Origin: Oscillospiraceae bacterium
GTDB taxonomy: Bacteria > Bacillota > Clostridia > UBA1381
Assembly: GCA_022509005.1 (NCBI GenBank)
Contig: JAFLUC010000001.1
Coordinates: 10,521 to 74,520, forward strand
Length of the DNA stretch: 64,000 bases
Direction: 5' to 3'
The translations under genes were made by a program, and so were the position numbers. This document shows positions 26,968 to 59,822 of this stretch, one piece after another (positions within the stretch are counted from its first letter, which is position 1; the number at the start of each line of letters is the position of its first letter). Under the pieces are notes generated by a model. It saw nothing but the letters and a program-made list of their open reading frames with translations, was not told the origin of the DNA and made no database searches.

Positions 26968-27602
26968 TTTGCAGTCAGCTCCTTAATGTTGTCAGTTATT
27001 GAGCCTTGAAATACTGCGCTCCCGGCCACAATCACATTTGCTCCGGCAAGTACAGGCTCTGTTATATTTTTGTTATTAACACCGCCGTCAATCTGAATAA
27101 GAAAATCAGATCCGGTAATTTTCCGGAGCTCCGAGATTTTTTCTTCAACGGCTTTTATATATGCCTGACCTCCGTAACCCGGCTCGACTGTCATGCATAA
27201 AACCATATCCGCTTTATCGATATACGGCAGTATAATATCAATCGGCGTATTCGGACTTATTGCCACACCAGCGCGGCATCCGCGTCGTTTTATCATATCT
27301 ATACAGCCGCCTATGCCATTTGTCGCCTCTGCATGGAAGGTTACAAAATCAGCACCGGAGTCTATAAACCTATCTATATATTTTTCCGGCTCAACTATCA
27401 TCAGATGAACGTCAAAAACCATGTCTGTGATTTTTCTTATTGAGTCAATAACAGGAAAAGCAAAGCTTATATTCGGTACAAATACGCCATCCATTACATC
27501 TATATGCAACCACGGCGCACCCGCAGACTCAGCCTCTTTTATCTGCTGTCCTAAATTCGCAAAATCCGCCGCAAGGATCGACGGCGCGAGAATTATGTCC
27601 AT
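26952..27602 (-). CDS. rpe: ribulose-phosphate 3-epimerase
   Basis: APSILAADF, HIDVMDG.FVPN, VEPGYGGQ and DGG motifs. Confidence 0.95.
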   Translation of the reverse strand: MDIILAPSILAADFANLGQQIKEAESAGAPWLHIDVMDGVFVPNISFAFPVIDSIRKITDMVFDVHLMIVEPEKYIDRFIDSGADFVTFHAEATNGIGGCIDMIKRRGCRAGVAISPNTPIDIILPYIDKADMVLCMTVEPGYGGQAYIKAVEEKISELRKITGSDFLIQIDGGVNNKNITEPVLAGANVIVAGSAVFQGSITDNIKELTAKCAQL

Positions 27603-47005: not shown

Positions 47006-47812
47006 ATGTTCAGAAACATTTCGGTTATAGGCGGCGATCTGCGCCAGATCACACTCGCAAGAATGCTTATTGAGGATGGATACAATGTGCTGATTTACGG
47101 ATTTACAAATGATATTAAAACCGAAGGGATTCCAACAACCGATAATTTAAAAGAAGCTCTCGACGCTGATATTATCATTCTCCCTGTTCCGGTTTCTTTT
47201 GATAATAAAACAATAAATATGACTTTTTCCGAAACAGTTCTCTCAACAGATGAGCTGATCAACGAGATCAATCCGCTCTCTATCGTTTTCGGCGGCAGAA
47301 TTTCGGAATATATCGCATCAAGACTTAGCGCAAGAGGCATAAAATACAAGGACTACATGGTTCGTGATGAGCTTGCGATACGCAATGCCGTACCTACCGC
47401 GGAAGGAGCTATAAAAATCGCAATTGAGGAAACTCCTATAACTTTGCACAACAGTAAATGTCTTGTTCTCGGTTATGGTAAGGTCGGAAAAATTCTTGCC
47501 AGATGCCTTGACGGAATCGGTGCTCATACATATGTAGAAGCCCGTAAATATGCCGATCTCGCGCTCATTGAAGGCCACGGCTTCCATCCGCTTACAATGA
47601 ATGAGACAACAGCGCATATTGATGAATTTGATGTTATTTTTAATACGATTCCCGCACTTGTTCTCACAGAGAATGTACTGAAAAAAATAAAGCCCGATAC
47701 ACTGATAATAGATCTTGCCAGCCGTCCAGGCGGCGTTGATTTCGACACTGCGCGTAATCTTGGACTAAGAGTAATATGGGCACTGTCGCTTCCGGGAAGT
47801 ATATCGGGTTGA
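47006..47812 (+). CDS. dpaA: dipicolinate synthase subunit A, 5' segment (codons 1-264 authentic to 47799, then 4 element-derived codons and a stop)
   Basis: Colinear with SpoVFA/DpaA (VIGGDLRQ, VPTAEGAI, VLGYGKVGK, IIDLASRPGGVDF, SLPG). It ends prematurely as SISG-stop exactly where sequence composition changes. Confidence 0.85.
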   Translation: MFRNISVIGGDLRQITLARMLIEDGYNVLIYGFTNDIKTEGIPTTDNLKEALDADIIILPVPVSFDNKTINMTFSETVLSTDELINEINPLSIVFGGRISEYIASRLSARGIKYKDYMVRDELAIRNAVPTAEGAIKIAIEETPITLHNSKCLVLGYGKVGKILARCLDGIGAHTYVEARKYADLALIEGHGFHPLTMNETTAHIDEFDVIFNTIPALVLTENVLKKIKPDTLIIDLASRPGGVDFDTARNLGLRVIWALSLPGSISG

Positions 47813-47843
47813 AAAAATGGATATCAAAAAAATTTGATATCCA
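47812..47843 (-). terminator. intrinsic terminator overlapping the last codons of the serine recombinase gene
   Basis: TGGATATCAAA-aaaa-TTTGATATCCA perfect 11-bp stem, followed by T6 on the minus strand. Confidence 0.6.
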
Positions 47844-49347
47844 CTTTTCCGTCTGCAATCTCTATAACTTTAATAACCGCTTTTGCTATTTGTTTTTTTA
47901 TTTCCGTATTATAATTATCCCAATCTTTTATGATATTTTCAATATCAAGCTTATCTGCATTTCCGTTTTGTTCTTCAAGCTGTAACCTTGTAATTTCTTC
48001 CAGTATCTCATTTTTCTCTCTATCCAATTCCACAATACGCTGATTGATATACTCAATCGTTATACTGTTTCCTTTAGCAACTGCTGACAGTAGATTTTTT
48101 ATTTCTTCATCTGTTTTTGATAACTCTATTTTCAATTCATTTATTTCGGGTGAATCTTTTACAACACTGCTTTGTTTTATCTCCTTGAGTTCATTTAATC
48201 TTTTAAATAATGCCTCTTTAACTATATTTTCTATTGTTTCGACAGGAACCATTTTTTTAGAATGCGGACATGTTTTATATCTGCGCCCTCTGCAATATAA
48301 ATATCTATATACTGTTTTATTGTTTTTTGATCTTGCTTTATACTTTTTAATATAGTAATTATATCCGCACCCGCATTTCATCAATCCTTGCAGCCACGTT
48401 AAGCTTCCTGTTCCTATGTTTGAGTGTCCTTTTCTTTGTGCAAAAATATTTCTTACAGAAAGCCATACATCAGCGTCAATTATTCCGTCATGTAAACCTA
48501 ATGTTACATAATCATTTTTCAGATTAACAAATTTTGAGCCTTTACGTTTGGACACTTTCCCGTAGACGTAACAACCTTTAACACCCTTATAATCCTCAAT
48601 AGAATTATTCATTGTTGCCCCAATACCCAAAAGATAATTATATATATCAGCATTTGCCTTTACATGAATCGGACTTTTCAACATTCTTGATACAGCATTT
48701 GAACTCCATGGACGGTTTTGCCTTGTCGGTACTTTCTTCTCATTTAATTCACGAGCTATCGCATTCAGACTCATACCATTGAGATAATCTTTATACATTT
48801 TTTCTAATATTCTGCTCTCGTCTTTCTTTATTTTAAATGTATAAGTTTTTTTACCATTTAATTGTGTTTCTATCTTTTCATATCCGAATGGAGCATATCC
48901 TCCTAAATAGAATCCCTTTTCACCTCTGCTATAATAGTTATCTTCTACTCTCTGTTGTATGGTTTCTCGTTCCATTTCTGCAAAAGTCATAAGAATACTA
49001 ACCATTGCTTTTCCTTGAGTAGTTGATGTATCAAACTGCTCATTAACAGACACCAAATCCGTATTATATTTTTCAAATTCTCTTTGCATATTGATAAAAT
49101 CATAAAGCGAACGGCTTATTCTATCGTATTTATAGATGATTATTCTCGATACGTTCCCTTGTTTTACTTCCGTCATCATACGCTGAAACTCAGGTCTGTT
49201 TTTCACTGATTTACCCGAATATCCTTTATCTGAAAATATCTCATATGATTCATTTTTATTTATTTTCTTTTTACATTCCTCTATCTGAGATTCAATACTG
49301 ATACTGTCTTTTTTGTCAACTGACTGTCTTGCATATATTGCTTGCAT
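47824..49347 (-). CDS. large serine recombinase (serine integrase)
   Basis: Resolvase-type catalytic N-terminus (AIYARQSVDKKDSISIESQ, YKYDRISRS), a recombinase domain, a Cys-rich zinc ribbon (CGCG...CRGRRYKTCPH) and a C-terminal coiled coil. 507 aa. Confidence 0.9.
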   Translation of the reverse strand: MQAIYARQSVDKKDSISIESQIEECKKKINKNESYEIFSDKGYSGKSVKNRPEFQRMMTEVKQGNVSRIIIYKYDRISRSLYDFINMQREFEKYNTDLVSVNEQFDTSTTQGKAMVSILMTFAEMERETIQQRVEDNYYSRGEKGFYLGGYAPFGYEKIETQLNGKKTYTFKIKKDESRILEKMYKDYLNGMSLNAIARELNEKKVPTRQNRPWSSNAVSRMLKSPIHVKANADIYNYLLGIGATMNNSIEDYKGVKGCYVYGKVSKRKGSKFVNLKNDYVTLGLHDGIIDADVWLSVRNIFAQRKGHSNIGTGSLTWLQGLMKCGCGYNYYIKKYKARSKNNKTVYRYLYCRGRRYKTCPHSKKMVPVETIENIVKEALFKRLNELKEIKQSSVVKDSPEINELKIELSKTDEEIKNLLSAVAKGNSITIEYINQRIVELDREKNEILEEITRLQLEEQNGNADKLDIENIIKDWDNYNTEIKKQIAKAVIKVIEIADGKVDIKFF

Positions 49348-49370
49348 ATATTTCTTACCCCTTTATTGAA

Positions 49371-49399
49371 ATACGGTGGAGATTAAATCTCCACCGTAT
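49371..49399 (-). terminator. 13-bp perfect hairpin between the small ORF and the recombinase start
   Basis: ATACGGTGGAGAT-taa-ATCTCCACCGTAT. On the minus strand it is followed by TTTCAAT and the recombinase SD AAAGGGG. It could be a partial terminator or attenuator. Confidence 0.45.
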
Positions 49400-49404
49400 T
49401 GATT

Positions 49405-49578
49405 TTAAATTTTTTGTTTGATAATACTTTCTATGCGATCTTTTATTTGAATATCACATTTTTTTCTCTGTATAAAATCAATTTTCGGTGTAAATGTATT
49501 CACAGTAATTCCATCTCTTTTATAACTACTTATCATCTCACCGATTAAACTATTTGATGATTCTGTCACACTATACAT
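49405..49578 (-). CDS. small hypothetical protein, 57 aa (candidate recombination directionality factor)
   Basis: Below the track cutoff. My translation is MYSVTESSNSLIGEMISSYKRDGITVNTFTPKIDFIQRKKCDIQIKDRIESIIKQKI-stop. SD GGAGTG lies 9 nt upstream, and a consensus promoter lies just upstream. Confidence 0.4.
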   Translation of the reverse strand: MYSVTESSNSLIGEMISSYKRDGITVNTFTPKIDFIQRKKCDIQIKDRIESIIKQKI

Positions 49579-49611
49579 ATAAAAATCACTCCATTCTTAG
49601 AAATTTTTTTA

Positions 49612-49640
49612 ATTATAATCCGTTTTTCTTCAAATGTAAA
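49612..49640 (-). promoter_or_regulatory. sigma-A-type promoter (TTTACA-17-TATAAT) upstream of the small ORF/recombinase
   Basis: The reverse strand reads TTTACA tttgaagaaaaacggat TATAAT. Confidence 0.5.
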
Positions 49641-49678
49641 CGGCGCATGACGAATTTTCATCGTTTATTCTATAAATT

Positions 49679-50218
49679 TTATGCTCGAATCTGCTTGTTT
49701 GATACCTTTTCATCTTCAAATACGTGTTTCTGATAAGATCGCAATTCATTCAATCTCACAGTTCGATCTAATATTTGTACATGGTGTAACATACACGACA
49801 CAATAATTGCTTCATCATAAGCAATTGGAACAAACTCCATTAAAACCTTTGCGTAGTACACCCCATCCAGTAATGTATCTCTTGGGATTGGATTGAAATT
49901 ACTATCGACAATATATGGTGTAACATTAACACTCGCTGTAAAAAACATACTATTAGCGTATAACAAATTATACGGGTGTTCTATGTTACCACATTTTAAT
50001 GGTAGTTCCAATATACTACGCTCCATAGCTGAGAGTGTGCCTCGCTCAACTGCAGCATCAATAGCATTATTTATCGCTGTTATCATCTCCGCATTTTCTT
50101 TAGAAAAAATGACACTTATCTCATACACTGGTACCATTTCATCTTCATGTTCTAGTTCAAATAATCTCTGAAAATCAAGAACAACAACATCTGTTTTTAA
50201 TTTTGTTTCCATTGTCAA
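49679..50218 (-). CDS. hypothetical protein, possibly a DUF2815-like phage/plasmid ssDNA-binding protein
   Basis: 179 aa. The pattern ...YEISVIFSKENAEMITAINNAIDAA...LELPLKCGNIE...YANSMFFTASVNVTPYIVDSNFNPI...DGVYYAKVLMEFVPIAYD...VSCMLHHVQIL parallels the DUF2815 consensus as I remember it. Not verified. Confidence 0.45.
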   Translation of the reverse strand: MTMETKLKTDVVVLDFQRLFELEHEDEMVPVYEISVIFSKENAEMITAINNAIDAAVERGTLSAMERSILELPLKCGNIEHPYNLLYANSMFFTASVNVTPYIVDSNFNPIPRDTLLDGVYYAKVLMEFVPIAYDEAIIVSCMLHHVQILDRTVRLNELRSYQKHVFEDEKVSNKQIRA

Positions 50219-50466
50219 CTCGCTTTCTTCAAATTTTTTATAATATTTAGTGAAATGTTATTTCGAAGCTTCGTCTGTTAATATTGTAATATTATTATAG
50301 CAGCTCTTTCATTTACAGTCAATTGGACGTGTTTAACAAGGTTTAATGTATCAATTTAGTATAAAGGGAGATTTTGAGAGCTGATATGAAAAAATCCAAT
50401 AAAAACGATCAATTAGAATAATTAATATATAGGGATACTGTCTTTGTTTCAAGTACATAATTTTAG

Positions 50467-50493
50467 GGTGCAGAATGATTGATATTCTGCACC
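50467..50493 (-). terminator. 10-bp hairpin just after the rep stop
   Basis: GGTGCAGAAT-gattgat-ATTCTGCACC. The downstream U-tract is weak. Confidence 0.4.
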
Positions 50494-50500
50494 TTATAAA

Positions 50501-51325
50501 TTATCTTTTTGTGTACTGCTCATATGAGTTTCTTCCAATCAAATTATTAATTCCATCATTATGATTCATAATAACATTATCTGTCCGCCTATAAGTCAAT
50601 TCTTTATCACCTATATATTTTTTGATATTACTATATTTTGTACGCAACTTAGTAATATTCATATCAGCAGAGCAACTATAAATTTTCATTCCTGTTGGAT
50701 AGAAAGATATTCTCTGAATTTTATTCTCATACCGAGTGATGTCAAAATAATACGACATCGTATTGACATTATTTATTTTTTGTACATTGACAGCTATTCC
50801 CCTTTTCCACAGTTTACGAACGCTATCATCTGTAATATTAAATGACTGTCCATCAAGACGTTTTATGAGACTGTGTATATGCCATGAACCCCTGGTATCT
50901 GGTTCTTTGATATAAAAGTATCTAAGTTTCCCATATCGCCTTTTAAGTTTATTCAGGAATTTCTGAAAATCTTTACTCAATCTTTCAGGTTCGCTCATAA
51001 ACTCTGAATATGTGAGAGTTACAAATCTTTCAGTATCGTCACCGTAGAAGAAACCTTTTATATATCTGGGAACATCTTTAAATGATTCTTTAAATGACGA
51101 TATATTTTTAGTTGATGTCTTGTTGTATTCCTTGATTTCCCCTGTTCGAGTATCAATAAAATGATCTTTATCAATTTTCTTTGTAGGGATGAAATTTAAA
51201 TTGTTTTTCTGAAAATTTTTACTGTCAATAATCTCGGTATATCGTGGAGTTTGAAAAACTGTCACTTGGTCTGTGGGATTAATTGGTTGAAACTCTGTTT
51301 GATGGTTAATTGTTTTTATTGGCAT
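50501..51325 (-). CDS. HUH-type rolling-circle replication initiator-like protein (Rep)
   Basis: Motif 1-like RFVTLTY, HUH motif SWHIHSLI, and a downstream Tyr-rich block NTMSYYFDITRY. I place the start at MPIKTI (51325), behind AAGGAGGGG. The track start 51382 lacks an SD. Confidence 0.6.
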   Translation of the reverse strand: MPIKTINHQTEFQPINPTDQVTVFQTPRYTEIIDSKNFQKNNLNFIPTKKIDKDHFIDTRTGEIKEYNKTSTKNISSFKESFKDVPRYIKGFFYGDDTERFVTLTYSEFMSEPERLSKDFQKFLNKLKRRYGKLRYFYIKEPDTRGSWHIHSLIKRLDGQSFNITDDSVRKLWKRGIAVNVQKINNVNTMSYYFDITRYENKIQRISFYPTGMKIYSCSADMNITKLRTKYSNIKKYIGDKELTYRRTDNVIMNHNDGINNLIGRNSYEQYTKR

Positions 51326-51763
51326 ATTCTGCCCCTCCTTAAAATGATTTAGTTGGTTATTCGTAAAATGAATGTACCGCACTTAATCCTAATAAGAATG
51401 GACCGAACGTTTTATTTGATTTTTTTTACTTTCGCTATAATTTATCAACATCTATAAATAAATTCAACAATTCGACAATAGATTTTAAACATGATACAAG
51501 AGGTCTGGGATAACTTTAAAGATATTATTCTTTATGGATAATATAGAAAATGGTCTGTTAAATTAAAAAGATTAAAAATGATTTTGACACTTAATTCAAC
51601 TAATCAAAAATGTGTTACTTGTTTCCATAATAATTAAATATGGAGTATTCCTTGTATTACTATTAGCGATTACTACTAATCTTGATAATTGAGGATACAA
51701 CTAACTTATTTTAAAATAATTTCTTATAATAAAATATTCCTAACTTACTTCATCATCTCTAAG

Positions 51764-51801
51764 ATATAAAAAGTACAGAATCAGAAATGAATCTGTACTT
51801 T
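51764..51801 (-). terminator. intrinsic terminator after the 226-aa gene
   Basis: AAAGTACAGA-loop-TCTGTACTTT followed by TTTTAT on the minus strand, 7 nt after the stop. Confidence 0.55.
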
Positions 51802-51807
51802 ATAAGA

Positions 51808-52488
51808 CTATCGATATATTTTTCTTATTTCTGTTTTACCCTCAATAAAGTTATAATGTTCATATTGATAAATCGTTCTATATTTATATCTGATATTTAC
51901 ACTGTGGGGTATAGGAAATAATAATATTTTACCTAAAAACTCATTTACGTTATCGGGTACTGGATTATATGATTTTTTAAAGAAATATTCATTCTTCCAT
52001 TTCTGATATTTTTTATCCGTCAATTCTTGATTTTCTTTTAATTTTAATATATCCTGTTTAAATTCATTTAATGATAAATGCGGATTCCTAAGACATTCTT
52101 TCTCTGCGTCACTTACAGATATACAATCTCTAAACGCAATTGAATATTCTCTCTCTTTATTTCTGATATTCGGATATATCGGAAAATCATATTTATTATT
52201 AATCGCATTTCTTTTTACCCATAAGGATTTTTCTACTTTATAGATACCAACAACTTTAGCTTTATGTATAGCAAAAACATACTCTATTTTCTCATAAGCC
52301 GTTTTTCTCATTTCCCATGCACCACGAGTACAATTATATATTATCTCATGTACATCTTTATATATATCATAATCTTTAACAGATAAATTCTGTTCTTTAC
52401 AAGCTTTTTCAAAAGATTTTCCAATATGAGCAAAGAATACATGTTCATTTTTTAAATCTGTTATATCTTTATATAACTCATTTGACAT
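51808..52488 (-). CDS. hypothetical protein (226 aa, no recognised domain)
   Basis: Clean ORF with SD GGAGG and its own promoter and terminator. I recognise no family. Confidence 0.5.
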   Translation of the reverse strand: MSNELYKDITDLKNEHVFFAHIGKSFEKACKEQNLSVKDYDIYKDVHEIIYNCTRGAWEMRKTAYEKIEYVFAIHKAKVVGIYKVEKSLWVKRNAINNKYDFPIYPNIRNKEREYSIAFRDCISVSDAEKECLRNPHLSLNEFKQDILKLKENQELTDKKYQKWKNEYFFKKSYNPVPDNVNEFLGKILLFPIPHSVNIRYKYRTIYQYEHYNFIEGKTEIRKIYR

Positions 52489-52517
52489 TTTTATTGCCTC
52501 CTAATCTATTATGCAGT

Positions 52518-52546
52518 TATTATAGCATAAAATGTCATAAAAGTCT
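52518..52546 (-). promoter_or_regulatory. sigma-A-type promoter (TAGACT-17-TATAAT, TGn extended) for the 226-aa gene
   Basis: The reverse strand reads TAGACT tttatgacattttatgc TATAAT. Confidence 0.4.
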
Positions 52547-52690
52547 ATTGATAGTATCGTTAATTTTCATATACGAAAATTGTTACTTGTGACTATTGAT
52601 AAAATTTATTACAATCATATTTAACTTATATATAATAAAGTCAGTAATAAAAAATACCGATGATTTTATTACTTTAAATCATCTTGTATT

Positions 52691-52775
52691 ATACATTCTC
52701 TCTGCGTATAGAATTTATATTACCTTGTAAAATAAATCCTTTATACGACATTTTAAAGCGTCCTGTATATGAATT
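52691..52775. repeat. ~85-bp imperfect direct repeat, copy 1
   Basis: ATACATTCTC...ATTACCT..TAAAATAAATCCTTTATAC..CATTTTAAAG.G.TCTGT.TATGAATT recurs at 52874-52959. Confidence 0.7.
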
Positions 52776-52808
52776 AAACGAATCAGATATCCCATTTATC
52801 TTCTACTA

Positions 52809-52848
52809 CAAAAAATATCGGAGCAGTATATACATATACCACTCCGAC
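52809..52848 (-). terminator. probable intrinsic terminator of the SPFH operon
   Basis: The minus strand reads TCGGAG..GTATAT..ATATAC..CTCCGA, a composite stem followed by ATATTTTTTG. It lies between the two repeat copies. Confidence 0.45.
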
Positions 52849-52873
52849 AATTATCCTTAAATCACTTTATATC

Positions 52874-52959
52874 ATACATTCTCATTCCATATATGAATCA
52901 ATATTACCTCATAAAATAAATCCTTTATACATCATTTTAAAGTGTTCTGTGTATGAATT
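52874..52959. repeat. ~85-bp imperfect direct repeat, copy 2 (abuts the stop of the 285-aa gene)
   Basis: See copy 1. Alignment by eye shows most positions identical. Confidence 0.7.
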
Positions 52960-53816
52960 TATACATGGTATTCAATAATTTTATTGTACACATACATATT
53001 TACTGCGTCATACTTACTTGTTAAAATAGGTCTTTCATTTCCACCTAAATATTTTACTATAGCGGCTGCGACAGCGGACGAAGCTGAATTCCCAAACAGT
53101 GAACCAACCGTTATCTTACTACACCCTTTTATGTAATTCATAAATGAATAAAGCTGTGAAATATCTTTATCGGATATGCCATTTGGATTATCAGGGTCTT
53201 CTGTATCAATAAAATCCAGAACAAGTGTCCACTTTGAATTAAGCCTACTGTCATATCCGTCTTTACCTATAAAGATATGCGCTTCGTTACAATACGGATC
53301 ACCATACTTAAGACCCCTGTCAATATCAATATATCCACTACACAAAGTATATACATTTCCATATGGGAATTGTGTGCTGTAAAACTCCATTTTTCCACCT
53401 GTTGAAAAATATGCACGCTCATTAAAACTATGTATCATAGGATTCAGGAATCGCTTCTCCATACCACATTTATCCGCCAAATATACCGCAGGTTCATATA
53501 ATATTTGTAATATCTTATCAATACATCTGAGAATAAATTCACCATCTTCTTGCGTACCATACCAGGGAATAGAAATAACATCGGCATATCTTCTAAATTC
53601 TTCACTCATATTTGTAACATCTAAAATATATTCTTCAGGATTAGACTTATAAATAAATATGTAAAGTGATTTCATTACTTTTATAAAATTATCATTATTT
53701 GCCACTGACCTCATATACTCGTCAACAGTTGTCAGGTTTTTTTCAAGCCATTTGCATATTTCGCTACAATATATAAGTCTGTCGCATAATGGAAGTGCTG
53801 CAAAATCATTATCCAT
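52959..53816 (-). CDS. hypothetical protein (285 aa, no recognised domain)
   Basis: Last gene of the minus-strand operon starting at 57476. I recognise no family. Confidence 0.5.
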   Translation of the reverse strand: MDNDFAALPLCDRLIYCSEICKWLEKNLTTVDEYMRSVANNDNFIKVMKSLYIFIYKSNPEEYILDVTNMSEEFRRYADVISIPWYGTQEDGEFILRCIDKILQILYEPAVYLADKCGMEKRFLNPMIHSFNERAYFSTGGKMEFYSTQFPYGNVYTLCSGYIDIDRGLKYGDPYCNEAHIFIGKDGYDSRLNSKWTLVLDFIDTEDPDNPNGISDKDISQLYSFMNYIKGCSKITVGSLFGNSASSAVAAAIVKYLGGNERPILTSKYDAVNMYVYNKIIEYHV

Positions 53817-53861
53817 AATTCTTTTACCTCATATTTTATTTTTTCAATAATTATTTAGCGA

Positions 53862-54131
53862 TTATTTCCCTAAAAATTTTTTATTTGCTTCTTTTCTCAA
53901 TTTTTTACTCGGTACAAACTTCAATTTCACATTTTCTATAACTTCTGCCGACTTTGTACCTTGATTTTTAATTTCTGACGTTAAATACCCTACATCATCA
54001 CTAATCACAAATTTCTCTTGATTCAATAACGCTTCTTTTATATCCTCTGCGAATACTTCTTTAAACTTGTCATATAAGGCTTCCGTTGTGATTTTCTCTA
54101 CTGAAAATTTTAATAATTCCGCTTTGTTCAT
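53862..54131 (-). CDS. divergent HU/IHF-fold DNA-binding protein
   Basis: 89 aa. MNKAELLKFSVEKI... N-terminus and a C-terminal KLKFVPSKKLRKEANK parallel HU (MNKAELI...VPAFKAGKALKDAV). The beta-arm is short and lacks the RNP motif. Confidence 0.5.
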   Translation of the reverse strand: MNKAELLKFSVEKITTEALYDKFKEVFAEDIKEALLNQEKFVISDDVGYLTSEIKNQGTKSAEVIENVKLKFVPSKKLRKEANKKFLGK

Positions 54132-54239
54132 TTCTCTACACTCCCTGTAATCCTTGTAATTTCTTATCAGATGAATCCTGTTAGATTAAAATGTTAATCG
54201 ATTTCATAAGCTTATTATCTTCGTAAGAATTTGTATTTG

Positions 54240-55775
54240 TCAATTTTCTATATATTTATTTGATACAATTGCACTAACATCGATAGCAACCATAGCACTT
54301 GTAACATCACTTGAGCTATATCCATACTTAGTAGTCAATGTATTCTTAATAGTATTTTCATCCATATTACGTAATTCGAACATTTCAATAGCTTTGATTT
54401 CAATTTCACTTAACGGTTTTTTCTCCAATTGTCTCGTAATTTTATGTATTTCGGCTTTAATTCCACCAATTTCAATCAATACTTTAGCATTAGCGCGCGA
54501 ACTAAAAAGACCTTTTTTTAATTTTGATTTTTCAGCTTTATATTGCTTCGCTAATTCGCTCATTCGTGCTTTTAGCTTTTGTTCAAGCGCAATGGCTTTT
54601 TTCTTTTGTTCTTCTTCATCTTTTTTCTTCTTTTGTATTTGTTCCAATAAGGATTGAACACTTTTACTAATAGGATAATCAGTATTAATTTTCTTTATCT
54701 TTTTAACTACATAAACAAAGTCATCAACAATGTCTTTTAGACGATATTTATCTTTAGTAGTATTATATTCAATAGCTAACGAATCTGCCCTCAATGATAA
54801 TGCTTCTAATTCTTCTTCCTCTGTTGACGAAAGATTAAGATGAATATATGTATAGATATCAACTCTACTCATCGTAAGATTATTATCTGTACTAAACGCT
54901 TCCGCAAGCCACATCAATTCTTGTCTATAATTACTAACAAATTTTTGAATTAACTCATTATGATCTATAGTTTCAAGTAATGAAATAATTTCCCTTTGTA
55001 TCAAATGCAATAATGAGTTGTTAATACTTATAGCAAGGAATCTTGCATGTTTTTTAGCATCCAGCATCTCTACGATGTCTTCGGCAATATGGTAAGAACT
55101 ATCTTGCGCATCCATTTTATTTACAACGAGTCTAGCAAGACTATAAATACTACTATCCTTAACATCTATGCTTTGAGCAAGATTGTAAATACTATTACCT
55201 TGAGAATCTATATTTTTAGCAAGATTATATTTATCTTTTTCATTGTCCATAGCCTCCAACAGAGCCGCAAACATAGCCTCCAATTTTCCTGCATTCTTAT
55301 AAAAAAAAGCTGATTTAACGAAACGCAATGTATTGTCGAAAAGCTTTTCAATCACTAATGATATAAAAGTTAATTTATTATTATCATCACAATTATCTAA
55401 TGCTTTATTCGCATAAAATAAAGTCTGATTAATACCAACTTCACTCTTACCATGCAATATGTCTTGCTTGATTTTGAAAAGCTCAATTTCCATTCTTAAA
55501 GTCCACCCAGCAAAACTATTTGCGTCAAGTGCTAACAGACTATCACAGGTTGCTATTGCTTTTCTATACTCATCAACATCCAGATAATTTAGAGCCAAGT
55601 CATAATAATTTTTGATTTTATTATTTTGTTCACTCTTAATCAATTCCGAAAAATTCGCTATTATTTTTTGTGAATTTTCCGCTGAATATTTTGTTCCGCA
55701 CCGCTGACAAACAAATACCTCTGATTCTTTTACCATATCTGTACTACCGCACATTTCACAAGTTAATCTCTCCAT
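54240..55775 (-). CDS. N-terminal zinc-ribbon protein with helical-repeat and Lys/Glu-rich coiled-coil regions (511 aa)
   Basis: CEMCGS...CQRCGTKY zinc ribbon at residues 6-29, TPR-like helical pairs, and a KKKKDEEEQKKKAIALEQKLKARMSELAKQYKAEKSKLKK coiled coil. Confidence 0.5.
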   Translation of the reverse strand: MERLTCEMCGSTDMVKESEVFVCQRCGTKYSAENSQKIIANFSELIKSEQNNKIKNYYDLALNYLDVDEYRKAIATCDSLLALDANSFAGWTLRMEIELFKIKQDILHGKSEVGINQTLFYANKALDNCDDNNKLTFISLVIEKLFDNTLRFVKSAFFYKNAGKLEAMFAALLEAMDNEKDKYNLAKNIDSQGNSIYNLAQSIDVKDSSIYSLARLVVNKMDAQDSSYHIAEDIVEMLDAKKHARFLAISINNSLLHLIQREIISLLETIDHNELIQKFVSNYRQELMWLAEAFSTDNNLTMSRVDIYTYIHLNLSSTEEEELEALSLRADSLAIEYNTTKDKYRLKDIVDDFVYVVKKIKKINTDYPISKSVQSLLEQIQKKKKDEEEQKKKAIALEQKLKARMSELAKQYKAEKSKLKKGLFSSRANAKVLIEIGGIKAEIHKITRQLEKKPLSEIEIKAIEMFELRNMDENTIKNTLTTKYGYSSSDVTSAMVAIDVSAIVSNKYIEN

Positions 55776-55794
55776 TTTGATTATCCTCCTTTGT

Positions 55795-56232
55795 TTATTT
55801 CCAATATGTTTTCTTTAATTTTTCAAATTCCTTATGTTTTTTCGCTGCTTTTTCATCAACCTTAACCATATGCTCATTTCCTGACGATAAAATTATCAAA
55901 CGTATTGCAAAGAACGCTAAAACCGCAATATGTATAACTATTGGTATAGCAATATACATACTTACCAAACAAGCTATAATACACAAGATTATCGACACAA
56001 TCGTACTTGATACCGCATATCCGACAGCCGTATAAATATATGCGAAGCCTTGAGGTGATTTGTTATTACATTTACCGAACACCCATAAACTGACCGCAAT
56101 ACCGCCTATCGCTATAAGCGAGAAAATATATGCTATTATAAATGTTGCCGTTATTGGTACTATTAAAAATAATAATGTTACCACTACTGCTGCTATTACA
56201 GCAGATAAAACAATTCTCATATTATTATCCAA
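55795..56232 (-). CDS. small integral membrane protein (4 predicted TM helices)
   Basis: Strongly hydrophobic, with a basic C-terminal tail. A TTG at 56232 sits 6 nt after GGAGGG. The alternatives are the ATG at 56220 or the track start 56259, which overlaps the SPFH gene. Confidence 0.5.
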   Translation of the reverse strand: MDNNMRIVLSAVIAAVVVTLLFLIVPITATFIIAYIFSLIAIGGIAVSLWVFGKCNNKSPQGFAYIYTAVGYAVSSTIVSIILCIIACLVSMYIAIPIVIHIAVLAFFAIRLIILSSGNEHMVKVDEKAAKKHKEFEKLKKTYWK

Positions 56233-56234
56233 TT

Positions 56235-57476
56235 TTATCCCTCCAGTTTTGTACCGCATTCAAGACAGAATTTTGCGCCTTGCGGTGCTTCCTTTCCGCA
56301 GTTAGGGCAAACAGCCTGTAATCTGCCGCCGCATTCCATACAGAATTTGCCTTTAGATGTTTTCTTATTGCAATGAGGACATATTATTTCATTTTCATTA
56401 AGCTGTTCTATTTTTGTACCACATTCAAGACAGAATTTTGCATTCTGCGGTAACTTATTACCGCAGTTAGGACAAATATTATCAGATTCATTCTTTGGCT
56501 TTACAGCGTTCCCAAGACTCTCATTAACCAATCCGCCGACTGTACCACCGACACCTGCCATTACTCCAAGACCTATACCCAGATTCGCCACATTACCGGC
56601 ACCCTCATTTTTAGCAAAATTTTGAGCAACATCAAATCCTCTCTCCTGTGCATAGGTGTATCCCTCAATCTGACGTTTCTGAGCCATTCCCTCTGCTTCA
56701 AGAATCATCTTTTGTTTCTCTGTTTCCTGTTCTATAATACTAACGCTCTGCTGTAATCTTGCTTCTGCAATATCCGCATATTGTCTGAAATGAATTTCTT
56801 TAAACCGTCTGTAAGTCGCATCACTTTCAGGTTTAACGATAGTAGTTACAAAGAAATGAACAAGTGATAATCCATATTCTTCAAAATCGTCTACAAGCAT
56901 TTTATGAATACTTTCCGACATTTCAGGGAGCTTTTCATCTATCTGGAATATATTAATACTGTTATTCCGTATATATGATGACAGATACCCTTTAAACCTC
57001 ATCATAAGAAACGCTCTGAATTTTTGAATCAATGCGGATTGTGTTAAATTTGTTTCTGTTCCTACCACCTTTACAAGTAGTTTACATGAATCTATAACAC
57101 GAAGTGACATTTCACCGCTTGCCCCTATTTGAATAGGAAAATTATATGTAGGCTCTATATATTCAATTTTACTGTCTGTACCCCATTTAACAGCCATTTG
57201 TTCAGTTTTATTTATAAAATATACTTCACAATGGAATGGCGTGTTATTATCAAAGGGTTTATTATAGAATTTGCTGATAAGAGGTATATTCTGCGTTTCC
57301 AGAGTATGTCTGCCGGCTTGAAATACATCTAAAATCTGACCATTCATATAAAATACAGCTTCTTGCGATTCATGTACAATAAGCTGTGTTTGAGTATTAA
57401 AATCCTCAATCGGTGATTTCCATACAAAGGTTGTATTGTCACCCTCATATTTAATGACCTGTGCTATATTAGCCAT
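56235..57476 (-). CDS. SPFH/Band-7 (YdjI/COG4260-like) protein with three C-terminal zinc ribbons
   Basis: N-terminus VIKYEGDNTTFVWKSPIEDF...LIVHESQEAVFYMNGQ...AGRHTLETQNIPL is typical of the Band_7_1/YdjI family. The C-terminus has CPNCGNKLPQNAKFCLECG, CPHCNKKTSKGKFCMECG and CPNCGKEAPQGAKFCLECG. Confidence 0.75.
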   Translation of the reverse strand: MANIAQVIKYEGDNTTFVWKSPIEDFNTQTQLIVHESQEAVFYMNGQILDVFQAGRHTLETQNIPLISKFYNKPFDNNTPFHCEVYFINKTEQMAVKWGTDSKIEYIEPTYNFPIQIGASGEMSLRVIDSCKLLVKVVGTETNLTQSALIQKFRAFLMMRFKGYLSSYIRNNSINIFQIDEKLPEMSESIHKMLVDDFEEYGLSLVHFFVTTIVKPESDATYRRFKEIHFRQYADIAEARLQQSVSIIEQETEKQKMILEAEGMAQKRQIEGYTYAQERGFDVAQNFAKNEGAGNVANLGIGLGVMAGVGGTVGGLVNESLGNAVKPKNESDNICPNCGNKLPQNAKFCLECGTKIEQLNENEIICPHCNKKTSKGKFCMECGGRLQAVCPNCGKEAPQGAKFCLECGTKLEG

Positions 57477-57547
57477 AATACATTATCCTTTCTGTGTAGC
57501 CATGATGTATTTATCATGTGTACCAACTCCATTGTTTATATAGATTC

Positions 57548-57576
57548 ATTATAACACACTTCACAATATTTTGCAA
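57548..57576 (-). promoter_or_regulatory. sigma-A-type promoter (TTGCAA-17-TATAAT, TGn extended) for the SPFH operon
   Basis: The reverse strand reads TTGCAA aatattgtgaagtgtgt TATAAT, about 70 nt upstream of the ATG at 57476. Confidence 0.55.
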
Positions 57577-57665
57577 CCATTATTTAACTTAATATTTAAC
57601 TGTATTTTTGCCTATATCTTTAAATAATAAAATCGGTTAAAATTATATTATACGGAGGTGTCTAT

Positions 57666-57839
57666 ATGGAATTCATTATAAAAAAACCAACCAGTTCCAA
57701 TCGCACAGTGAGAATGCCGGATGACCTGATAGAAAAAATAAGCAAGCTCGCTGCTGAACAAGAAATTTCTTTTAATCAATTAGTGATTCAATGCTGTGAA
57801 TTTGCACTTGAACATCTAAACAAGAAAAAAGATAAATAA
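57666..57839 (+). CDS. ribbon-helix-helix (CopG/Arc-like) DNA-binding protein, 57 aa
   Basis: Below the track cutoff. My translation is MEFIIKKPTSSNRTVRMPDDLIEKISKLAAEQEISFNQLVIQCCEFALEHLNKKKDK-stop, which shows a beta-strand/helix/helix RHH pattern. SD GGAGGTG lies upstream. Confidence 0.55.
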   Translation: MEFIIKKPTSSNRTVRMPDDLIEKISKLAAEQEISFNQLVIQCCEFALEHLNKKKDK

Positions 57840-57867
57840 TATAATTAACTGATTCTATTGGTTCTTA

Positions 57868-57931
57868 TATCCAATCCTCTATCCTATAAACTTCTCATTT
57901 TTTATAGTATTTTAGAAATGGGGATTGGATA
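57868..57931. repeat. 10-bp inverted repeat pair downstream of the RHH gene and tyrosine recombinase gene
   Basis: TATCCAATCC (57868-57877) and GGATTGGATA (57922-57931), enclosing a nested CTATAAA/TTTATAG hairpin. Confidence 0.5.
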
Positions 57932-57957
57932 GTTATTTCCTTATATAAAATCTCTTT

Positions 57958-58533
57958 TCATAAATTAACAGCATTATAACAGTCTGTAATCACTTCTTTA
58001 GTGATACCTATATATCTTAATGTAATTTCACTTGAACTGTGATTCAACATCTTTTGAAGTGTTTCTATTGGTACCTTATTAATATACCTGTGAAAAGCCA
58101 TTGTTTTTCTTAATGTATGAGTACCATAATTACCTTTAATACCTAAATCCTTTAGTGTACTTTTAATAATATGATGTAATGGTCTTACCCCTAAATGTCC
58201 TCCCTTTCTGCTTTTGAATAAATAATCGTTAAGGTCTACACTTTTAAACGTATCCAAATATGTTCTTATAGCATCCTTTGCGTTTTTGTTTAATACAAAT
58301 GTTCTTGCCTTTCCTGTTTTTTCTTCCTTTATAGTAACTTCATCAAATATCGTTTTTCCGTCTGTAACATCACTGATTTTCAATGATAATAAATCCCCTG
58401 CACGAAGTCCGACATTGATTCCTACTACAAATATACAATAATCCCTCTTGTTTTCTTTACCATATAGATATTGTTTGATTTTGTTGATATCCTTGATATT
58501 TCTTATAGGTTCAACCTCTTTGGGTATTGGCAT
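57958..58533 (-). CDS. small tyrosine recombinase (catalytic domain only, FimB/FimE-sized)
   Basis: 191 aa. GLRAGDLLSL (Arg I), HTLRKT (His-x-x-Arg) and LNHSSSEITLRYI (His/Tyr nucleophile). Confidence 0.85.
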   Translation of the reverse strand: MPIPKEVEPIRNIKDINKIKQYLYGKENKRDYCIFVVGINVGLRAGDLLSLKISDVTDGKTIFDEVTIKEEKTGKARTFVLNKNAKDAIRTYLDTFKSVDLNDYLFKSRKGGHLGVRPLHHIIKSTLKDLGIKGNYGTHTLRKTMAFHRYINKVPIETLQKMLNHSSSEITLRYIGITKEVITDCYNAVNL

Positions 58534-58637
58534 AGTTGTTCTCCTTTCACATTTTGCATTTGTTGAGATTTATATTATATATTTATCACAGTTCTCTTTA
58601 AATGTAAACGGTTTTTAGGACAGTCACAGAGTAAAAA

Positions 58638-58680
58638 CAATATTACCTTATAGCTAAATTTGCGATAAAAGGTAATATTG
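58638..58680. repeat. perfect 12-bp inverted repeat CAATATTACCTT-N19-AAGGTAATATTG
   Basis: Read directly. Lies in the divergent region between the tyrosine recombinase gene and vbhA. Confidence 0.75.
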
Positions 58681-58757
58681 AAAATCACATGTAAAAGGAT
58701 TTTTTATGATAAACTGCTTATAAACCTAACAATACCAATACTTTCAGGCTTTTTAGA

Positions 58758-58788
58758 CAATATTACCTTCTGTTAAATGGTAATATTA
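58758..58788. repeat. second copy of the same inverted repeat: CAATATTACCTT-N9-GGTAATATTA
   Basis: Read directly, about 120 bp from the first copy. Confidence 0.75.
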
Positions 58789-58830
58789 GAATGATATTTC
58801 AAATAAAAAATTTAATATCAAAAAAATCTA

Positions 58831-58859
58831 TGTACATTTTATTAAATCTATGTTATAAT
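58831..58859 (+). promoter_or_regulatory. candidate promoter of the vbhA-fic operon (TGTACA-17-TATAAT, TGn extended)
   Basis: TGTACA ttttattaaatctatgt TATAAT. AATCTATGT occurs twice across it. Confidence 0.4.
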
Positions 58860-58877
58860 ATTTTTGAGGTGTTTATT

Positions 58878-59054
58878 ATGACTGAAAAACAGAAAACTCA
58901 TTTAGATGAGGTTATATTCTCTATGGAAGTTGAGGGGTTTGAAATTCCCGATGAAGAAAAAGAAACTCTTATCGACATTCTAAACGGCAGATATACGTTT
59001 CAAGAAATATTAGATTCTTATATTTCAGAGGCTAAGGCTTATGGACGAGTATAA
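58878..59054 (+). CDS. VbhA-type Fic antitoxin
   Basis: 58 aa. It contains the inhibitory S-x-x-x-E-G motif (FSMEVEGF) characteristic of VbhA/class I Fic antitoxins. SD GAGGTG. Overlaps the fic start by 14 nt. The track start 58791 is upstream of the SD. Confidence 0.75.
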   Translation: MTEKQKTHLDEVIFSMEVEGFEIPDEEKETLIDILNGRYTFQEILDSYISEAKAYGRV

Positions 59055-59646
59055 ATATTATTATAAAGGTGCAGATTTTTACTGTTATCCTGATACTAAG
59101 GTACTGATTAATAAATTCGGAATACGTGACAGTGAGCAGTTAGAAACCGTTGAACGCAAAATTACCGCATTAAAGACTTTGGAGCTTGAAGAAAAGCCGT
59201 TTAATGGTAATTTGGATTATAAATATTTATTGAGTATTCATCATTATTTATTCTGTGATTTATATGAGTGGGCTGGTAAAATACGTGTTGGTGAATTTAT
59301 GTTTAAAGGCGACAGTATGTTTTTCAGAGCATGTTATATAGAACAAGGATTTGATAGTTTTTATAATAAGCTGCTTAATGAAAACTTCTTAAAGGTTTTA
59401 GATAAAAATAAATTTTGTGAACGTCTTGCATATTATATGGGTGAATTAAATGCGCTCCACCCTTTTAGAGAGGGAAACGGCAGGACAAGCAGACTATATT
59501 TCAAACAATTGGCAAAACAAGCTGGATATCAAATAAAGTTCAGTAATGTTTCAAAAGATGAATTATTAAATGCTGATATCGCAGCTTTTAACTGCAAATA
59601 CGATCCGTTAATTCGAGTATTGGACAAGGTTGTATTAAGCAATTAA
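59041..59646 (+). CDS. Fic-domain toxin (class I, VbhT/FicT-like)
   Basis: Canonical Fic motif HPFREGNGRTSR, 201 aa. Confidence 0.9.
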   Translation: MDEYKYYYKGADFYCYPDTKVLINKFGIRDSEQLETVERKITALKTLELEEKPFNGNLDYKYLLSIHHYLFCDLYEWAGKIRVGEFMFKGDSMFFRACYIEQGFDSFYNKLLNENFLKVLDKNKFCERLAYYMGELNALHPFREGNGRTSRLYFKQLAKQAGYQIKFSNVSKDELLNADIAAFNCKYDPLIRVLDKVVLSN

Positions 59647-59690
59647 TACTATCAGACGATATGTAATGGTTATTAAATAAAGATTATTAC

Positions 59691-59724
59691 AATCCGAGCA
59701 ATTATCACGCTCGGATTATTTTTC
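59691..59724 (+). terminator. intrinsic terminator after fic, about 25 bp inside the right element end
   Basis: AATCCGAGC-aattatcac-GCTCGGATT followed by ATTTTT. Confidence 0.65.
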
Positions 59725-59749
59725 AACTGAATACGTTTCCTCCCGGGAG

Positions 59750-59822
59750 ATTTGCGCCCGTCACAGCTGGAATTATCATAAAGGACACGATAACAAATAT
59801 GATTTCTGAGCTTCAGGGTTAA
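59750..59822 (+). CDS. dpaA: dipicolinate synthase subunit A, 3' segment (final 24 codons plus stop)
   Basis: Reads (R)FAPVTAGIIIKDTITNMISELQG-stop, matching the conserved DpaA tail LPG-x-x-AP-x-TAG-x-I. It is in frame with 47006-47799 when the two segments are joined. Confidence 0.75.

Follow-up and report, generated by a model that had tools for sequence, protein, structure and literature searches.

The window analysed here is the whole stretch of 64,000 nucleotides from an Oscillospiraceae bacterium (assembly GCA_022509005.1, contig JAFLUC010000001.1), and it carries five consecutive minus-strand genes inside a mobile element. These five genes probably belong to two units and not to one system, namely, a conserved mobile trio (genes 1-3, encoding an SPFH protein, a small four-transmembrane (4-TM) protein, and a protein with a zinc-ribbon head) and unrelated cargo (genes 4 and 5). 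The trio is a copy of a conserved, widespread, horizontally mobile, and unstudied three-part membrane module. The sequence-only reading of this DNA had placed all five genes in a single uncharacterised membrane-associated system on a mobile element. Genes 1-3 do form such a set, whereas genes 4 and 5 have to be taken out of it. A check of the open reading frames (ORFs) of the window recovered all five on the minus strand exactly where that reading had put them, with intergenic gaps of 2, 19, 108, and 45 nt from gene 1 to gene 5.

Gene 1 (56235-57476, minus strand) encodes a soluble SPFH protein of 413 aa. Its SPFH domain spans residues 28-218 (Pfam Band_7_1, E 4e-40) and is followed by a helical region and by a tail matched by the Pfam families Zn_Ribbon_1, DZR, and Zn_ribbon_3. 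Three CxxC-x9-10-CxxC ribbons can be read directly from the sequence at residues 334-411, so that its earlier description as an SPFH/Band-7 protein with three zinc ribbons holds. A hydrophobicity check found no N-terminal transmembrane (TM) helix, and the sole hydrophobic stretch is a Gly-rich segment at residues ~296-325. The protein is 74-81% identical to its nearest relatives, and a sequence search of the PDB returned nothing significant, that is, no close solved structure. Gene 2 (55795-56232, minus strand) encodes the 145-aa 4-TM protein, recognised as such already by the sequence-only reading, in which four strongly hydrophobic helices precede a C-terminal tail rich in Lys. Its start, behind a GGAGGG, is either a TTG (56232), 2 nt past the SPFH stop, or an ATG (56220), 14 nt past it. 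No match to it was found in Pfam (E 0.01), NCBIfam, PHROGs, or PADLOC.

Gene 3 (zr511; 54240-55775, minus strand) begins 19 nt after gene 2, with the ribosome-binding site AAAGGAGG, and encodes a protein of 511 aa composed of a zinc-ribbon head and a helical body. In the AlphaFold2 (AF2) model (mean pLDDT 74), a small zinc-ribbon sheet is predicted beside an all-helical TPR-like and coiled-coil body, which includes a 50-residue helix at 371-420. The ribbon, the TPR-like body, and the long helix agree with the zinc-ribbon and helical-repeat protein proposed beforehand. Compared with the PDB by Foldseek, the model retrieves generic TPR proteins only, with a TM-score of ~0.15. Neither a TM helix nor a TIR domain was detected by the hydrophobicity check and Pfam. 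The head consists of one CxxC...CxxC ribbon and the first TPR-like hairpin (residues 1 to ~100-150), and its cysteines C6, C9, C23, and C26 are invariant in alignments with 25-44 relatives. An exhaustive phmmer search of 1.84 billion cluster representatives gave 1994 matches at E <=0.001, the best 150 of which are all confined to the N-terminal 75-190 residues. In the same search, no protein except gene 3 itself reached 1e-30, and a word-indexed search likewise retrieved relatives of the head only.

The head occurs in two flavours. The first, MKQLTCEMCGST..., is the type of gene 3 and is found on bodies other than TIR proteins; the second, MAxFKCKMCGG..., is found on TIR proteins. In ten proteins with the first flavour, the body consists of repeats only or is unrecognised, and no enzyme domain is present. 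Some head-bearing partners are fused to a ribosomal L7/L12 C-terminal-like domain (L002:10230-10565 and L077:10090-12069; Pfam E 1e-10 to 5e-11), an unexpected pairing with a zinc-ribbon head. A domain of this kind was also considered for the C-terminus of gene 3 and rejected, as no similarity was found.

The evidence that genes 1-3 belong together comes from a census of relatives. When one genome per species was scanned with the SPFH protein, at least 529 relatives came to light, and 80 loci from six phyla, with SPFH identities of 52-81%, were retained; their ORFs were called and hidden Markov models (HMMs) were built locally. Several loci lacking a part end at contig ends, and the fractions given here are therefore floors. 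By HMM, a homologous 4-TM gene (141-257 aa) lies immediately downstream of the SPFH gene in 67 of the 80 loci, and a protein with the same ribbon and TPR-hairpin head lies downstream in 63. A comparison of every element protein with the same loci by tblastn placed the 4-TM protein in 31 loci, at 25-65% identity to the gene downstream of the SPFH gene, and the first ~95 residues of gene 3 in 26. By position, head-bearing proteins account for 55 of 73 genes at rank 2 and 27 of 67 at rank 3, compared with 13 of 396 upstream genes. The window genome itself holds this SPFH subfamily once and the head once, and the two are adjacent; no second head protein was found in it. The association was also seen in the reverse direction, as two of three proteins chosen by head similarity alone sit one or two genes after a Band_7_1 gene.

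What follows the head is extremely variable. Head-bearing proteins range from 111 to 1476 aa, their bodies are unrelated, and the head alone is common to them. TIR domains are carried by 39-41 of the 80 loci according to a local TIR HMM. Among 44 third genes searched with Pfam, TIR_2 was found in 23, together with many TPRs, DUF6273, LRR_5, Ank, RCC1, and FGE-sulfatase domains. An arrangement with the 4-TM protein and the head but without TIR is present in 19 of the 80 loci. In two close relatives (L003 and L004), a protein of 139-146 aa with a lipoprotein-like signal and a head-bearing protein of 347-349 aa stand between the 4-TM and TIR genes, and the composition of the module is thus flexible. 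In a related module (L131 and L132), the Band_7_1 tail is a GYF_2 domain in place of zinc ribbons; a small gene and a head-bearing protein still follow, and a RhuM-like gene and an integrase are near. The surroundings of the module are not conserved, as 130 flanking proteins match 142 different Pfam families, no neighbour recurs as a conserved one, and 13 are recombinases or TnpV.

Genes 4 and 5 behave differently. Gene 4 (hu89; 53862-54131, minus strand) encodes a basic protein of 89 aa for which an HU-like fold is plausible, not firm. The AF2 model (pLDDT 84) has the element order H-E-E-E-H with an arm shorter than in HU, and its top eight PDB matches by Foldseek all belong to the HU family (TM-score 0.47-0.65, E ~0.02 to 0.3). 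However, no Pfam HU profile matches the protein, a genome-wide search with PF00216 retrieves the chromosomal HU gene alone, and the hhalign alignment with HU is colinear but weak and not significant (P ~0.02), so that the HU fold named by the sequence-only reading receives moderate support. A dozen homologue clusters share 63-75% identity with hu89. The surroundings of three homologues were inspected, and each is flanked by an NAD-dependent ligase gene on one side and by thymidylate synthase, 5'-3' exonuclease, and helicase genes on the other; one of the three sites also has a primase-type Toprim gene. One of these contigs is an IMG/VR viral contig, the sole IMG/VR contig with an hu89 relative, and no match was found among deposited phage genomes. 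Its relatives in such phage-type replication clusters suggest that hu89 is phage-derived.

Gene 5 (orf285; 52959-53816, minus strand) encodes an acidic protein of 285 aa. It had been called an orphan, and no match was found in Pfam, PHROGs (E 0.001), NCBIfam, or PADLOC, nor anything significant in a PDB sequence search. It is better described as a near-orphan, since a single homologue cluster at 50% identity exists among 5.8 billion clusters; on short contigs, this homologue adjoins a WYL gene and a weak PDDEXK_4-like gene. The protein ends with ITVGSLFGNSASSAVAAAIVKYLGG (residues ~235-260), which may resemble a phosphatase-type P-loop without the catalytic Cys and Arg. A third gene of the same part of the element, orf226 (51808-52488, minus strand), encodes an orphan protein of 226 aa, 51 residues of which weakly match PD-T4-3, a single-gene system in PADLOC (E 5e-4); PHROG 5356 is also matched (E 5.5e-3).

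The co-occurrence of the five genes, by which the sequence-only reading had proposed to be judged, was not observed, as tblastn with hu89, orf285, and orf226 gave zero matches in the 80 SPFH loci. Genes 4 and 5 have no relatives in these loci and their homologues stand in unrelated contexts; for this reason they are placed outside the module. That all five genes act together as one functional cargo system is accordingly very improbable. Such a system would be in keeping with their common strand, with their position between one promoter-like site and one terminator-like hairpin, and with a signal scan of the region in which no terminator was found between genes 3 and 4. The outer signals are indeed present as sequence, as previously reported. 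A promoter-like site (TTGCAA-17-TATAAT with a TG extension, a consensus match only) lies at 57548-57576 on the minus strand, ~70 nt upstream of the SPFH start, and a hairpin of 15 pairs followed by a T-run lies at 52816-52849 on the same strand, 110 nt past gene 5. However, promoter-like matches are not enriched in the region, with 33 found against 41.5 expected in shuffles. Moreover, a second site (TTGACA-18-GATAAT; 54214-54243, minus strand), which overlaps the gene 3 stop and precedes gene 4 by 83 nt, matches the consensus at 11 of 12 positions and scores better than the site upstream of the SPFH gene. A single five-gene transcript cannot therefore be taken as given, and genes 4 and 5 probably have their own promoter. 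In addition, sister elements have other genes at the position of genes 4 and 5.

The element that carries these genes extends over ~11.95 kb (47800-59749, boundaries approximate) and stands out by its low GC (0.25-0.38, compared with 0.43-0.47 in the flanks). Its genes comprise a large serine recombinase, an Enc34-type SSB, a rolling-circle Rep, orf226, the five genes described above, a ribbon-helix-helix (RHH) gene, a short tyrosine recombinase, and a Fic pair. The element splits dpaA. The 5' part of this gene reads ...WALSLPG and then continues into four foreign codons, and the tail that it lacks, GRFAPVTAGIIIKDTITNMISELQG, is encoded immediately beyond the right end of the island; intact dpaA relatives continue straight through this point as ...WALS(L/I)PGR(V/T)APVT(A/S)G....

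Sister elements occupy the same dpaA codon in two further loci, L002 (the G002 contig, from a species of the same genus) and L010. The window element and its sisters have the genes for the tyrosine recombinase, SPFH, 4-TM, Rep, and serine recombinase in common, with DNA identities of 66-78%. The similarity breaks off inside the first 30 nt of gene 3 and does not return until rep. The interval from the 4-TM gene to the replication genes is thus a variable slot, which holds gene 3, hu89, orf285, and orf226 in the window and one or two small head proteins plus a ZnR-TPR-TIR protein (zinc ribbon, TPR, and TIR) in the sisters. The alignment of gene 3 with the TIR protein of L010, which has several hydrophobic segments, is limited to residues 6-93 (E 2e-6). 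Genes 4 and 5 are occupants of the same variable slot of a ~12-kb serine-recombinase element.

Several further observations concern the element as such. Insertions of 12-13 kb at this dpaA codon are seen in at least three species (window, 47006-47812 and ~59745-59822; L139, G002:C9:18000-37200; L010). The G002 element measures 13.1 kb and is turned the other way round with respect to dpaA; there, the serine recombinase adjoins the 3' part of the gene, and in the window it adjoins the 5' part. The right junctions of both nevertheless read ...TFPPGR..., which is unusual for a serine integrase that has an asymmetric core. A further species of the genus apparently has its dpaA split near residue 130 by ~10 kb (G009:C148:16720-17145 and 27099-27494), which would be a second, different insertion site in this gene. 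Serine recombinases excise intervening elements from sporulation genes, such as skin in sigK and others in Bacillus spoVFB, spoVR, and gerE. The window element resembles them in interrupting the sporulation gene dpaA in frame with a large serine recombinase beside one junction, and it differs from them by the addition of a rolling-circle Rep, an SSB, and a short tyrosine recombinase. No relative of the whole element was found by megablast in phage and plasmid collections. At its right end, a gene for a Fic-domain protein (58791-59646, plus strand; Pfam E 1e-13) overlaps a small upstream ORF, and the two are consistent with a toxin-antitoxin or addiction pair. Divergent from the module lies the RHH gene (57666-57839, plus strand), which encodes a HicB/CopG-like protein of 57 aa (Pfam HicB E 6.5e-6, RHH_1 E 1.8e-3). 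By tblastn, its homologues precede the SPFH gene at 70-75% identity in L003 and L004 and at ~36% in L002 and L010, and it is a candidate regulator of the module.

The SPFH and 4-TM genes belong to the conserved backbone of at least three sister elements that target dpaA, where they stand beside recombinase and rolling-circle genes. It could be argued on this basis that the trio serves the element, either by excluding competing elements or phages at the membrane or by stabilising the membrane during replication or transfer of the element. Most of the 80 modules, however, are not beside recognisable element genes, and only 5 of 2.9 million IMG/VR viral contigs carry a relative, which makes this function quite improbable.

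The trio spreads horizontally and its distribution is patchy. Of 399 genomes sampled in the class, 29 (~7%) have the SPFH subfamily; it is present in 24 of 217 genera and, within the genus, in 5 of 27 species. In the SPFH tree of 76 rows, six phyla are interleaved, and the presence or absence of TIR requires at least 18 changes, of which at least 8 are forced by supported branches. The window copy belongs to a clade of 14 rows, supported at 95/94, and TIR is borne by 11 of them. Given this nesting of the window SPFH protein in a TIR-rich clade, the present copy has most likely lost its TIR partner or exchanged it for another protein. No TIR_2 domain was found by profile search anywhere in the 95%-complete assembly.

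The same observations raise the question of whether the trio still functions. A decayed remnant, in which a TIR-bearing version lost its effector by cargo replacement and the SPFH protein, the 4-TM protein, and the head are now functionless, would account for the TIR-rich clade, for the TIR proteins of the same-site sister elements, for the lack of TIR_2 in the genome, and for the orphan body of gene 3. This explanation is nonetheless considered unlikely, for the three ORFs are intact, tightly spaced, and provided with good ribosome-binding sites, the SPFH protein has kept the high identity to its nearest relatives given above, and TIR-less copies recur, both in the 19 loci of the census and in 23 of 75 tree rows.

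Among characterised systems, the closest likeness is to the pspA-ydjGHI operon of Bacillus subtilis, now renamed samGHI, in which YdjI (SamI) is a soluble Band-7 protein with a C-terminal ribbon that requires YdjG and YdjH for the membrane and recruits PspA (PMC8581546, PMC11237479, PMC13713150). YdjG has two ribbons, an NTF2/YpeB-like domain, and a TM segment, and YdjH has a TPM domain (PMC11237479). Gene 1 shares the YdjI architecture, being a soluble Band_7_1 protein with C-terminal ribbons (PMC8581546, PMC11237479), and stands, like ydjI, beside genes for a membrane protein and a zinc-ribbon protein. The recruitment of an SPFH scaffold by a membrane partner is likely a shared logic. The resemblance to ydjGHI drawn by the sequence-only reading is therefore acceptable, loosely, for the SPFH architecture, but the analogy with ydjG and ydjH fails at the level of homology. 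Indeed, the 4-TM protein lacks a TPM_phosphatase domain (no Pfam match at E 0.01), and gene 3 has one ribbon and a TPR-like body with neither an NTF2-like domain nor a TM segment. The gene order is reversed, and the window trio is patchy and mobile with a hypervariable third gene.

It follows that a housekeeping membrane-stress operon of the PspA type, orthologous to pspA-ydjGHI, is a most improbable identity for the trio, being contradicted on three of four defining features. The absence of pspA noted at the locus extends to the whole 95%-complete assembly, in which PspA_IM30 found no match, although control genomes did match. Its patchy distribution and its location on a mobile element also speak against a housekeeping operon. 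Furthermore, the same genome has a separate chromosomal YdjG/YdjI-like pair (L091, G000:C75:36228-39899, ORFs 52-1341 and 1348-2535). The YdjG-like protein has 429 aa, two N-terminal zinc ribbons, and C-terminal TM helices; the YdjI-like Band_7_1 protein, encoded after a 7-nt gap, has 395 aa and C-terminal ribbons. The similarity between the two Band_7_1 proteins of the genome is confined to the ribbons.

Tight coupling of an SPFH gene to a small membrane-protein gene is also a feature of other operons, such as stomatin/NfeD (QmcA-YbbJ), flotillin-YqiJ/YuaF, and HflK/C-FtsH, in which the SPFH assembly is thought to organise or cage a membrane client. The window trio shares this coupling. It differs in that the 4-TM protein matches no NfeD or YqiJ family model in Pfam, the SPFH protein has no TM anchor of its own, and the client gene bears a dedicated zinc-ribbon/TPR head and varies between genomes. 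An NfeD-type pair was considered and rejected, as no Pfam family matches the 4-TM protein. Bacterial TIR defence systems, such as Thoeris with ThsB and other TIR NADases, provide a second term of comparison, because about half of the related modules put TIR on the head-bearing protein, and the TIR partner of one relative gives a weak ThsB-like PADLOC match. Conversely, the window has no TIR, and no ThsA-like partner is present. A functional parallel, by analogy only, exists with plants, in which SPFH (HIR) proteins organise immune receptors in membrane nanodomains (PMC13534476), likewise an SPFH scaffold together with a receptor-like immune protein. A literature search on SPFH proteins with TIR, zinc ribbon, or defence, and on Band_7_1/PF13421/COG4260, found no description of the trio.

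A possible mechanism can be outlined from these comparisons. The 4-TM protein would be the anchor that keeps the SPFH oligomer at the cytoplasmic side of the membrane, a role filled by YdjG and YdjH in the case of soluble YdjI. The conserved head would then dock the variable third protein onto the SPFH platform, perhaps against its zinc-ribbon tail, as gene order and analogy suggest. In about half of the relatives, the docked protein would be of the ZnR-TPR-TIR kind, and the platform would control the TIR effector. Such proteins usually have one or more hydrophobic, TM-like segments and often an extra binding or repeat domain (DUF6273, LRR, RCC1, or FGE-sulfatase-like). In the present copy, the docked protein would be a soluble helical scaffold without a recognisable enzyme domain. 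Taken together, the family resembles a sensing or conflict platform based at the membrane, probably anti-phage, and the defence role is attributed to it mainly on the ground of its TIR-bearing relatives. A more specific version, in which the trio is an undescribed immune or conflict platform of gut anaerobes whose 4-TM-anchored SPFH protein holds exchangeable zinc-ribbon-headed receptors or effectors and of which the present copy is an effector-swap variant, is put forward tentatively, as a possibility with less than even chances.

Several points weigh against this interpretation. Anchoring, docking, and the conflict role rest on gene order and analogy. The copy of the window has neither a TIR nor any other recognisable effector domain. 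As the sequence-only reading had anticipated, no named defence system is recognised, for PADLOC-DB v2.0.0 has no matching model for the five proteins; among the relatives, it gave no match for the SPFH protein, the small head protein, and most TIR partners. A defence-island setting, about which the sequence-only reading had asked, did not appear, since the nearest gene on each side of the 80 loci shows no visible excess of defence genes. As regards the trio itself, the seed of the head HMM was a regular expression for zinc ribbons, and the model may take in some generic ribbons, though its upstream background is low, and the third head homologue of the reverse check has no SPFH gene nearby. 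Finally, read-through from the upstream promoter could still put genes 4 and 5 on the same transcript as genes 1-3.

SPFH proteins are universal membrane scaffolds whose roles in bacteria are poorly understood. In this context, the census links one SPFH subfamily, through a gene order repeated across six phyla, with a dedicated 4-TM partner and with a docking head that recurs on many different proteins, half of which have TIR. What had been read as five genes is thereby corrected to a unit of three, and the window adds a TIR-less copy nested among TIR-bearing relatives. The boundaries of the swappable slot are clear owing to the sister elements at the same dpaA codon. The genome of the window, in which no PspA was found, also shows the trio side by side with a YdjG/YdjI-type pair and distinct from it. 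Although its TIR-bearing relatives lend themselves more directly to testing, the present copy is a useful natural contrast to them, and, if the platform reading is true, its comparison with the TIR-bearing sisters at the same site would show what the scaffold alone does. If the docking logic is true, the module would represent a modular way to place sensors and effectors on the membrane and would add a candidate defence family for gut Clostridia, present in ~7% of the genomes of the class sampled.

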